DNA from: a virus
Virus record (IMG/VR): IMGVR_UViG_3300036790_000034
Span: 1-64,000 of that record
Length of the DNA stretch: 64,000 nucleotides
Reading direction: 5' to 3' (one strand)
Made by a program: the position numbers and the translations under genes. The notes under the pieces were generated by a model that saw only the letters and a program-made list of their open reading frames with translations, ran no database searches and was not told the DNA's origin. The number at the start of each line of letters is the position of its first letter. The stretch's first letter is position 1. Shown here piece by piece: positions 6,696 to 62,922 of this stretch.

Positions 6696-6839
6696 CGGTG
6701 GGCCGCTGAGGGATTGAACCTCCGGCTCCCAGAGATTACTAGGCGTGGCTTGTTCTAGAATTGCCAGCCGTTCAATCAGTCAGGGACTCTCTGTGATGCT
6801 GGCAGGACTTGCGGTCCCGTTGCGAACCAGCGTCGGCCC
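6696..6839 (-). ncRNA. expanded tRNA-like RNA (144 nt)
   Basis: Acceptor GGGCCG/CGGCCC-A-CCG; T-arm GAGG-TTCAATC-CCTC; D-like stem CTGG/CCAG enclosing an extra hairpin; anticodon-position stem CAGAGA/TCTCTG with a loop of about 50 nt. Confidence 0.6.
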
Positions 6840-6844
6840 GTATA

Positions 6845-7435
6845 GAAATTTTGTCCCCGTTCTTTGACACGGTGGGGACCAAGCCGCGTGACTACTACCG
6901 ACCAGCGGCAGCAGCCATTGCACGAGGTTTAGTCGTAGCAAGTATTTTTTCTGATGTCTCGTTGGCGTTCCGACATCGAACGCTCTAACCTGAAAGCGAA
7001 AACACCTTTCAAGTCGGTGAGCCACAGCACCCCGACACGCAAGTTGAAACGCTGACTCATCCCCGTCGAAACCATGACGCCCCCATCAAGCGTGCTCACT
7101 CCACGAGACCAGACCTTTAGAGCCGCACAATCGCGGCGGGCTGTCATACCTTGCCCACTTGCCGACGGTGGAACGTCGAGGGGCGGTCATCGTGAGCACG
7201 CTTGGTGGAGGCGGCGGGAATCGAACCCGCGTCCGAGAACAGCAACGCCAACCCTCAACGTGTGTAAACTTATCGAGCGTGATGCGGTGTTAGGACTCCC
7301 TCGCCCTGCCGTCGCAGTATAGTGGGTGTTGATTCACCGTACCAGTATCCGCACTACTCATCGCACGCTCAATCTTTATCCCGGTCTCGGGCCAAAGCCT
7401 TGTCCGCTGGCAAGCCAGCCACTCGCTACCCATCC
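6845..7435 (-). ncRNA. ssrA: circularly permuted (two-piece) tmRNA; outer boundaries approximate
   Basis: The 3' tRNA-like half GGACGCGGGTTCGATTCCCGCCGCCTCCACCA (CCA end 7203) lies upstream of the 5' half GGGGGCGTCATGGTTTCGACGGGG (start 7084); 7-bp acceptor with G3.U70; helix-2 complementarity between the pieces; tag frame 6939-6895 ATTKPRAMAAAAGR followed by TAG TAG. Confidence 0.85.
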
Positions 7436-7756
7436 CTATTTAGCGACCGGAATCTTCAGAACTGAATTCTCTTCCGTGGTCTCGATGCGGTGACAATTCG
7501 CACACAGCACGTCGCACTTCTTGACCTCGGATTTTATTTTCGAGAGTGCCCATCCCGCAGTAGCGGCTCGGAGCACTCCGAACAATTTCGTCTTACGATT
7601 TCGATGAGCAAAGTCCAAAGCCGCTGGGTGCTCTTTGTAGCCGCATCGTCTACAGCCCCGTTTTAGGCGATAGGAATCCAGCCATGCTTTGGTCTTCGCA
7701 ACTCGTCGTGCTCGACAAGCCTTCCAACTTGCATAAACGTGAGACGGCTTGCCCAT
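7436..7756 (-). CDS. HNH-type homing endonuclease (CxxCG...LDFxH...KCDVLCANCHR family)
   Basis: GCRRCGYKEHPAALDFAH...EVKKCDVLCANCHR. Confidence 0.8.
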   Translation of the reverse strand: MGKPSHVYASWKACRARRVAKTKAWLDSYRLKRGCRRCGYKEHPAALDFAHRNRKTKLFGVLRAATAGWALSKIKSEVKKCDVLCANCHRIETTEENSVLKIPVAK

Positions 7757-7760
7757 TGTT

Positions 7761-8000
7761 TTACAGCTTTTTCGCGAGGTCTTCGACAGCAGTGTGCAGG
7801 TCTTCGACGACTTCGGTATGAGCATCGACAGCAGCCTTCACCGCATCCGTCTTCACCTTCACCGCTTCCAAATTCGCGGTCGCAGACAGGGTGTTGGCTT
7901 CCTTCCCCGCCTTGTTAAACAGTTTTCCAATCTGACCACGGAAGCCGTAGCCAAGAGCCACGCCTGCGAGAATCAGAATTGCATAAACCAGAATATCCAT
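7761..8000 (-). CDS. small membrane-anchored protein
   Basis: N-terminal TM segment MDILVYAILILAGVALGYGF; GGAGG RBS; own promoter. Confidence 0.7.
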   Translation of the reverse strand: MDILVYAILILAGVALGYGFRGQIGKLFNKAGKEANTLSATANLEAVKVKTDAVKAAVDAHTEVVEDLHTAVEDLAKKL

Positions 8001-60190: not shown

Positions 60191-60264
60191 GCGGGTGTGG
60201 GCCATTGGTAGGCTAGTTGGCTTCCACCCAACTTATGGGAGTTCAATCCTCTCCACCCGCTCCA
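60191..60264 (+). tRNA. tRNA-Gly(TCC)
   Basis: GCGGGTG/CACCCGC-T-CCA; GTTGG-CT TCC AC-CCAAC; TTCAATC T-loop. Confidence 0.9.
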
Positions 60265-60327
60265 TCGACGTAAAGCAAGCATACCCCGGTGATGCCGATT
60301 AAAAGGATTCGCCGGGGATTGTGATGT

Positions 60328-60414
60328 TGGCATGTAAACCGTAACTGGTAGCGGGCTGCACTGTTAATGCAGTAGCTCACGCTTCTGTAGGTTCGAGTCC
60401 TACCTTGCCAGCCA
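60328..60414 (+). tRNA. tRNA-Asn(GTT) with long variable arm
   Basis: CTGCA-CT GTT AA-TGCAG; 14-nt variable region; GTAGG-TTCGAGT-CCTAC; G-CCA. Confidence 0.85.
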
Positions 60415-60419
60415 ATTTG

Positions 60420-60774
60420 TCTGCCTCTGTTGAAACAGGCTTGCCCCGGATTCAGGGTAACGAACGCCCACGCGACACAGATGGCGTGGTGATGGTCTGC
60501 TGCTCGGTGAAACTCCGGGCGTATCCGAGATGACGAGAAGGATTACGCACGACGCGTGCTGGCGTTGCATCGTGTGACTTCGCTCGTCGGTTCCACCAGC
60601 AAAGACTTGCCGTAGAAGACCCCTGAACTCGTCGAAGGCGTTGCAGCCGAGAGTTCATGCCTCTACGCCCCACCTTTCCGGCCCGATGCAACTAAGGCTA
60701 GTGAGGTTGCGTGCAACGGGGAACTCGCTAGGTCCGTCGAGTGGGCATTTTATAGATGCCTGTTACGGACCCAC
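60420..60774 (+). ncRNA. structured ncRNA candidate (about 350 nt) inside the tRNA cluster
   Basis: Nested helices and a T-loop-like GCTCGG-TGAAACT-CCGGGC; no credible ORF. Confidence 0.45.
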
Positions 60775-60849
60775 GGGCCTTTATTTCAATTGGCAGAATC
60801 CCTCCCTTGCACGGAGGAGATGGGGGTTCGAGTCCCTCAAGGTCCACCA
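60775..60849 (+). tRNA. tRNA-Ala(TGC)
   Basis: GGGCCTT/AAGGTCC with G3.U70; CCTCC-CT TGC AC-GGAGG; A-CCA. Confidence 0.92.
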
Positions 60850-60887
60850 TTCTTTTTGTCCGTTACTAATGGACACGCAACGAACAC

Positions 60888-60963
60888 GGACAGATAGCTC
60901 CAATGGTAGAGCGTCGGTTTGAAACTCCGAAGGTTCGTGGTTCAACCCCACGGCTGTCCACCA
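60888..60963 (+). tRNA. tRNA-Phe(GAA)
   Basis: GGACAG/CTGTCC-A-CCA; GCTC/GAGC D-stem; TT GAA AC loop; CGTGG-TTCAACC-CCACG. Confidence 0.85.
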
Positions 60964-62845: not shown

Positions 62846-62922
62846 TGGTGGCTAGGGGACGATTTGAACGTCCGACGGCGGGCTTATGAGGCCCGTGCTC
62901 TACCAGACTGAGCTACCCAGCC
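62846..62922 (-). tRNA. tRNA with CAT anticodon (elongator Met most likely; Ile2 not excluded)
   Basis: GGCTGGG/CCTAGCC-A-CCA; CGGGC-CT CAT AA-GCCCG; GGACG-TTCAAAT-CGTCC. Confidence 0.9.

Follow-up and report, generated by a model that had tools for sequence, protein, structure and literature searches.

We find that a phage genome encodes a permuted (two-piece) tmRNA whose peptide tag, ATTKPRAMAAAAGR followed by TAG TAG (6892-6939, minus strand; ARAGORN), lacks the free C-terminal Ala-Ala of an SsrA-type degron and ends in ...AAAA-Gly-Arg. The textbook tmRNA tag ends in Ala-Ala and routes its product to ClpXP; the viral tags described here form a natural, conserved family that breaks this rule. 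Judged from codon usage across ten related genomes, the Gly-Arg cap is real and under selection at the peptide level. That the RNA is a functional tmRNA, and that its selected cap uncouples ribosome rescue from proteolysis by host ClpXP, is the explanation we favor, with about even confidence.

The window analyzed is a stretch of 64,000 nucleotides, the first 64 kb of a complete 97,491-bp (97.5-kb) IMG/VR phage genome with direct terminal repeats. ARAGORN places the tmRNA gene at 6804-7295 on the minus strand, and the Rfam model RF04321 (tmRNA_permuted) matches it with 62 bits (gathering score, 47; Table 1). As required for a two-piece tmRNA, the acceptor half, which ends in CCA, precedes the 5' half. 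Together, the halves provide a 7-bp acceptor stem, GGGGGCG (7084-7078) with CGCCUCC (7213-7207), that includes the G3:U70 alanine identity pair, and cofolding of both pieces yields the acceptor stem, the T arm, and helix 2. The coding piece alone, in a plain minimum-free-energy fold that models neither pseudoknots nor the second piece, scores no better than its shuffles (z = -1.14). The segment between the pieces, which differs in length between aligned relatives, is presumably removed by tRNA-processing enzymes. Scans for sigma-70 promoters and intrinsic terminators around the gene returned no site, and among public sequencing runs no RNA run containing the stretch was listed. An HNH endonuclease gene lies directly upstream (window 7436-7825, minus strand), and more HNH-like ORFs are dispersed over the phage genome.

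Table 1. Positions of the tmRNA features in the 64,000-nucleotide window.
Feature	Positions	Strand	Content	Basis or remark
Acceptor piece	7203..7295	-	3' strand of helix 2, T arm, CGCCUCC, discriminator A, encoded CCA ending at 7203	ARAGORN, Rfam RF04321, sequence
T arm	7214..7230	-	GCGGG-UUCGAUU-CCCGC	Rfam alignment
Intervening segment	7085..7202	-	118 nt, from CCA to the 5' end of the coding piece	Gene order
Coding piece	6804..7084	-	GGGGGCG, GGUUUCGAC D-loop analogue, helix 2 5' strand, tag frame, downstream hairpins	
A-rich upstream context	6940..6950	-	AAAAAAUACUU; sets the resume frame	Conserved in relatives
Tag reading frame	6898..6939	-	14 codons, ATTKPRAMAAAAGR	ARAGORN; homologous tag family
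Cap codons	6898..6903	-	GGT CGG (Gly-Arg)	Gly-Arg kept in 7 genomes
Tandem stops	6892..6897	-	TAG TAG	Relatives: TAG or TAA right after the cap
Hairpin over the tag end (helix 5 equivalent)	6890..6916	-		Local fold

The tag-coding part corresponds to gene positions 357-404 (window 6939-6892). A preliminary description of this DNA had chosen the resume codon by eye and read an AAAAGR ending from GCT (6939-6937) through GGT CGG (6903-6898) to TAG TAG (6897-6892), and ARAGORN returns exactly this frame and these coordinates. The resume codon GCT follows AAAAAAUACUU, which resembles the host tmRNA context ACAAAACUAUAAGU, and all relatives keep an A-rich context ending in ..AYWWT ahead of a GCN codon. 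Neither of the other two frames offers a tag-like reading, as one is closed by a stop after two codons and the other lacks an early stop. The choice of resume codon is thus backed by the program, by the conserved context, and by the poor alternatives, while the unusual ending is confirmed by the ARAGORN tag, the RF04321 match, and its conservation in relatives. We take the complete tag to include also the alanine charged on the tmRNA, giving (A)ATTKPRAMAAAAGR. In the hairpin over the tag end, the Ala codons pair with CGG-UAG-UAG-UC; the loop CUGGU contains the Gly codon, and the 3' strand contains the Arg and stop codons. Recoding of TAG was considered and rejected, as the genome has no suppressor tRNA and uses all three stops normally, and relatives use TAA. 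A near-identical contig in two soil runs of a different study leaves the tag region unchanged. This near-identical strain shows three clustered base differences at window 6969-6972, within a hairpin upstream of the tag, which preserve stem pairing by means of a G-U pair.

The phage origin of the tmRNA, as the preliminary description had it, is borne out by the complete genome, in which terminase, portal, capsid, DNA polymerase, and primase genes are called (PHROGs). By TerL, the closest cultured phage is Tunturiibacter phage Tunturi_3 (45% identity), a 97.6-kb podovirus of Acidobacteriota (PMC11924767). A 22-nt pattern from the tmRNA 5' end occurs mostly in Acidobacteriaceae/Terriglobales (Acidobacteriota) genomes among the matches listed, and this soil phage probably has an acidobacterial host. 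When compared to the tmRNA of Tunturiibacter lichenicola, the phage tRNA-like domain matches at 22/26 positions at the 5' end and 31/34 at the 3' end, with an identical acceptor stem, and two of the three differences in the 3' 34 nt are compensatory, pairing with each other in the T stem. The exact 24-nt 5' end of the tRNA-like domain had no match in IMG/VR, and a degenerate pattern was used instead for that search. Among the matches listed by one pattern scan of a metagenome set and one of genomes, most were one-piece host tmRNAs, and both scans serve here as host background only. Because the tRNA-like domain appears to mimic that of Acidobacteriaceae hosts, host AlaRS, SmpB, and EF-Tu would be expected to load the phage tmRNA onto stalled ribosomes. 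The phage genome encodes no SmpB, and use of the host protein is therefore assumed; for both SmpB and AlaRS, we infer that those of the host serve the phage RNA.

Two cultured Tunturiibacter phages also carry permuted tmRNAs that had escaped annotation. In Tunturi_3 (PP885686.1, about 88.0-88.4 kb; L051:1150-1800), the gene scores 63 bits in Rfam and its tag ends in ...MLAA, while that of Tunturi_4 (PP885687.1; L048:1065-1599) scores 79 bits, with a tag ending in ...RYAVAA. The paper describing these phages makes no mention of tmRNA and reports only tRNAs, of "unknown" type (PMC11924767). In Tunturi_4, gp53 (L048:1570-1917), an RF-1-domain protein of ~115 aa that is ArfB-like in size, directly adjoins the tmRNA, and this phage may carry two adjacent ribosome-rescue devices.

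A permuted tmRNA is present in all near-complete relatives found through TerL, and the homologous tag family comprises about 25 phage contigs. At six loci (L035, L051, L325, L406, L407, and L408), ARAGORN missed the tmRNA, and the tags were read by eye or script from the Rfam matches. The survey of homologous tag ends that the preliminary description had proposed gives ...AAAGR in seven phage genomes (this phage included), ...GA in two, and ...GC in one, together with uncapped sisters. The seven Gly-Arg tags are ATTKPRAMAAAAGR (this phage), AKTNTLAMGAAAGR (G004), AETEKPRAFAAAAGR (G030), AETKPLAMAAAAGR (G037), ATPKRAFAAAAGR (G019), ANDNIVSAPMKAMGAAAGR (G035), and ANDGVIVTAPKAKAMGAAAGR (G036). 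Across their last five codons (A-A-A-G-R), they differ only at third positions, and every difference is synonymous: Gly is encoded by GGT, GGA, or GGC, Arg by CGG or CGC, and the stop is TAG or TAA. The Gly-Ala caps are found in G056 and G040, and the Gly-Cys cap, one transition away from CGC, in G050. Gly is thus invariant in 10/10 capped tags, which between them use all four Gly codons. The degenerate pattern A-[MF..]-[AG]-A-A-A-G-R-stop matched only six IMG/VR contigs, all six inside tmRNA genes, which argues that the Gly-Arg ending is not a chance match.

The cap is also kept where its RNA surroundings differ. In the window, the Arg codon sits in a hairpin stem, and RNA structure therefore contributes to its conservation there. 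In G019, the local fold instead forms another hairpin, whose 5' strand contains the Gly-Arg codons and whose loop contains the stop, and with the cap present in two hairpin layouts, RNA structure alone fails to explain its conservation. G036 has the same tag end despite a different acceptor stem and T arm. Phages whose structural and replication modules are unrelated also have capped tags: the terminase, portal, capsid, polymerase, and primase of this phage are all missing from G035 and G036, which have ~40 accessory ORFs in common with it.

The uncapped sisters (...AFAAAA in G013 and G039, ...AFAAHA in G007) bear on whether the cap has any function. These relatives carry TAA exactly where capped tags have GGN, with the stop codon in the hairpin loop, and G013 reads TAA CGG at the cap position. 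Such an arrangement is what would be expected if a loop stop had simply mutated to Gly so that two codons are read into the stem, with ribosome release the only thing that matters and the tag end functionless. The cap state also flips in close relatives, as in G019 and G007, which are sisters with 100/100 support in the TerL tree, and in G037 and G039, and this alternation suggests that the cap is dispensable or easily swapped; its last residue, moreover, varies between R, A, and C. We nevertheless regard a neutral by-product as improbable. The exact Gly-X-stop recurs in ten genomes without Gly ever being replaced, five codons of the seven Gly-Arg tags have accumulated only synonymous changes, and the cap persists through the changes of hairpin layout and of acceptor stem and T arm described above. 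The same coding-type conservation sits poorly with a decoy, in which the RNA would mainly soak up host SmpB or compete with host tmRNA and the tag would seldom be translated. Tag-less phage tmRNAs do inhibit host tmRNA, and a decoy role has been proposed for the tRNA-like-domain-only tmRNA of mycobacteriophage DS6A (PMC4131195, PMC11915505), and the absence of a phage SmpB would suit such a role. Here, however, a complete frame, its resume context, and its stops are conserved with a coding-type substitution pattern, and we consider the decoy very improbable.

The favored explanation, in which the cap uncouples rescue from host ClpXP, depends on how hosts read their own tags. The tmRNAs of Acidobacteriaceae are one-piece and encode tags such as AEPQFALAA, ANNNLALAA, and ANQQMAYAA, and of the one-piece host tags with the 22-nt pattern, 198/200 among the matches listed end in AA (LAA or YAA) and none has a charged last residue. 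In E. coli, ClpX chiefly reads the terminal Ala-Ala-COO-, which is contacted by Tyr153/Val154 (pore-1 loop), Thr199/Val202 (pore-2 loop), and Arg228/His230 (RKH loop), and a change in either of the last two ssrA residues raises KM (PMC7652416). T. lichenicola, which has a clpP-clpX operon, retains all six tag-reading residues in ClpX (AGYVG, SITRDVSG, and GGRKH; T199/V202, R228/H230). An Ala run followed by Gly-Arg leaves the phage tag without the signal that such a ClpX is built to read, and because the host enzyme keeps all six residues, it is plausible, by analogy with E. coli, that host ClpXP no longer reads the capped tag in the normal way. Charged tag ends are otherwise rare, being confined to Carsonella in a survey of 710 distinct tags (PMC4131195). 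The preliminary description had attributed the block to the charged terminus. The phage tag does end in a charged Gly-Arg, while charge as the sole reason does not hold, since sister tags are capped with Gly-Ala or Gly-Cys and only Gly is invariant. According to the favored mechanism, the tmRNA would append (A)ATTKPRAMAAAAGR to stalled products, the cap would displace the Ala-rich stretch from the free C-terminus, and host ClpXP would no longer recognize the rescued products normally. Rescue would then be insulated from default host proteolysis, and the fate of a tagged protein would be decided by something else.

One candidate for that something else is encoded outside the window, in the form of a 357-aa one-ring Clp ATPase (G000:73947-75020, minus strand) with AAA_2 (PF07724, E 3e-34) and ClpB_D2-small (PF10431, E 3e-9) domains. 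The protein is closest to the D2 ring of ClpC, ClpB, or ClpA, and its best PDB match is S. aureus ClpC (6em8, E 6e-56). Its motifs are intact (Walker A/B GPTGTGKT and DEIEKA, sensor-1 TSNVG, pore loop GYLG), and an IGF tripeptide aligns with the AGF ClpP-docking loop of ClpC. A hydrophobic-Gly-Phe tripeptide occupies this position in 51/53 ATPase homologues. The AAA module begins at about residue 50 with no other Pfam domain, and no N-terminal substrate or adaptor domain (ClpX zinc finger, ClpA/ClpC N domain) was found. No ClpP is encoded by the phage genome; the host has one. Two genes upstream of the ATPase lies a gene for a 182-aa Cpn10 (GroES-like) domain protein (G000:75797-76345, minus strand; L310:2988-3536), also outside the window. 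A full phage chaperone set (GroEL/DnaK) among the genes that this phage shares with G035 and G036 was considered and rejected, as the Pfam assignments of these genes are helicase, RNA ligase, RecA, DNA ligase, and an HTH protein.

The ATPase follows the tag family. Of the capped-tag phages with a completeness of 75% or more, 6/6 encode it, as do two jumbo phages whose tags, ANAPKAMAAHA and ATAPKALAMAAAA, belong to the family but are uncapped. It is absent from 5/5 complete phages with other permuted-tmRNA tags (...LVMA, ...SVAA, ...MLAA, ...AVAA), and neither Tunturi_3 nor Tunturi_4, both with uncapped tags, encodes it. A reciprocal search recovered the ATPase from 58 IMG/VR contigs; 13/46 new records also have a permuted tmRNA, and in 13/13 of these the tag is again of the A[MF]-Ala-rich family. 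In five contigs (G064/65/66, G071, G075), the tmRNA, a cell-wall hydrolase, and the ATPase form a same-strand cassette, with the ATPase one gene downstream of the tmRNA. In the ATPase tree, capped tags are confined to two well-supported clades, and none is found in the other 13 rows. As related genomes share labels, the co-occurrence counts are not independent.

The preliminary description had offered, as its second option, that the cap reroutes products to another protease. With a one-ring Clp ATPase co-occurring with the tag family, sometimes nearly adjacent to the tmRNA, this option gains weight, and the link to the ATPase makes it a serious rival to the favored explanation. In its specific form, which is the strongest rival, the Ala-rich tag, capped or not, would be a private degron read by the phage ATPase, whose hydrophobic-Gly-Phe loop would dock it on host ClpP. 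The cap would serve to stop ClpX from competing, and tagged proteins would be destroyed or unfolded on the phage's terms. The intact ATPase motifs, the near-universal tripeptide at the docking position, a ClpP supplied by the host only, and the whole distribution just described are consistent with this. Several points weigh in the other direction. The co-occurrence may in part be due to a mosaic module inherited from a common ancestor, a tmRNA is missing from four complete phages that encode the ATPase, and ~30 kb separate the two genes in the genome studied here; furthermore, the ATPase is without a substrate or adaptor domain, and an IGF-like tripeptide alone is no proof of ClpP docking. On balance, we view a private degron as possible, though unlikely. 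We are equally hesitant about a portable module, doubtful at present, in which a private Ala-rich tag (often Gly-X capped) is paired with a one-ring unfoldase that plugs into host ClpP while the cap hides the tag from ClpX. Were this true, the phage motor alone would pick which rescued, mostly host-derived, fragments are destroyed, in what would amount to a viral takeover of a bacterial quality-control protease. A point against the favored uncoupling of rescue from host proteolysis is that upstream parts of the tag may be read by other proteases (Lon, FtsH, ClpAP).

The link drawn in the preliminary description between the tag and tRNA- or mRNA-cleaving host defences is speculation. The phage encodes an RNA ligase of 403 aa (PF09414 with a PHA02142 OB fold; G000:65284-66495, minus strand; L341:1284-2495), outside the window, which could repair cleaved tRNA and would fit a translation-damage toolkit. 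This ligase has counterparts in G035 and G036, and its presence proves nothing about anti-defence. The window itself contains a tRNA cluster at 60191-60963 (Gly-TCC, Asn-GTT, Ala-TGC, Phe-GAA) and, on the opposite strand, a tRNA-Met at 62846-62922. With a length of 87 nt and an Rfam score of only 34 bits, the tRNA-Asn call may hold an insertion. G031, a 332-kb jumbo phage with an uncapped tag of the same family, has two tRNAs with CUA anticodons (L041:7297-7583; "Pyl" in ARAGORN), that is, amber suppressors, and may recode TAG.

The capped tag is a rule-breaker that sits beside rule-keeping hosts and travels with a viral unfoldase seemingly built for ClpP docking. If the cap blocks or redirects degradation, evolution can uncouple rescue from proteolysis, phages can tune host protein quality control, and the tag and ATPase would represent natural parts for an orthogonal degron and unfoldase. 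The cultured Tunturiibacter phages and their hosts provide a nearby experimental system.

Two-piece phage tmRNAs as such are known. They have been published for the OM43 phage Melnitz and for pelagimyophages (PMC9004378), and a 2025 tmRNA database holds 79 phage entries (PMC11915505). In the literature on phage or viral tmRNA, we found no description of capped tags, and it is the Gly-X-capped tag that is new. Like the Melnitz and pelagimyophage tmRNAs, the RNA described here is circularly permuted and phage-borne, with an alanine-identity tRNA-like domain, its own tag frame, and no phage SmpB. Most of those phages are aquatic, and the origin of the Melnitz gene lies in Alphaproteobacteria, whose own tmRNAs are two-piece (PMC9004378). 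In our case, by contrast, the likely hosts have one-piece tmRNAs, the tag has a Gly-Arg end, and the gene is accompanied by a phage Clp ATPase.

At the level of the tag, the phage peptide shares with E. coli SsrA (AANDENYALAA; PMC7652416) and with Acidobacteriaceae tags a GCN resume codon, a short length, and an Ala-rich C-terminal part. It differs from SsrA in its two extra residues, which remove the free Ala-Ala-COO-, and in its upstream part, which has basic residues (K, R) in place of polar or acidic ones. Engineered stable ssrA variants, such as those ending in ...LDD, are laboratory substitutions that are expected to escape ClpXP while rescue continues. The phage tag resembles them in that its last two residues are not Ala-Ala, whereas its cap is a natural two-residue extension, maintained by selection, with an invariant Gly. 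A charged last residue is shared with the tag of Carsonella ruddii, which ends in Lys (PMC4131195). Carsonella, however, is a degenerate endosymbiont in which smpB and ssrA are decaying, and reversion to a hydrophobic end is seen in some strains (PMC4131195), while the phage RNA is intact and its tag end conserved across phage lineages. Finally, the ATPase resembles the D2 ring of ClpC, ClpA, and ClpB in its AAA_2 and ClpB_D2-small domains and its GYxG pore loop, and it carries a hydrophobic-Gly-Phe tripeptide at the site by which ClpC and ClpA dock on ClpP. Unlike these proteins, it is phage-encoded and consists of a single ring of 357 aa without the N domain, D1 ring, or middle domain.
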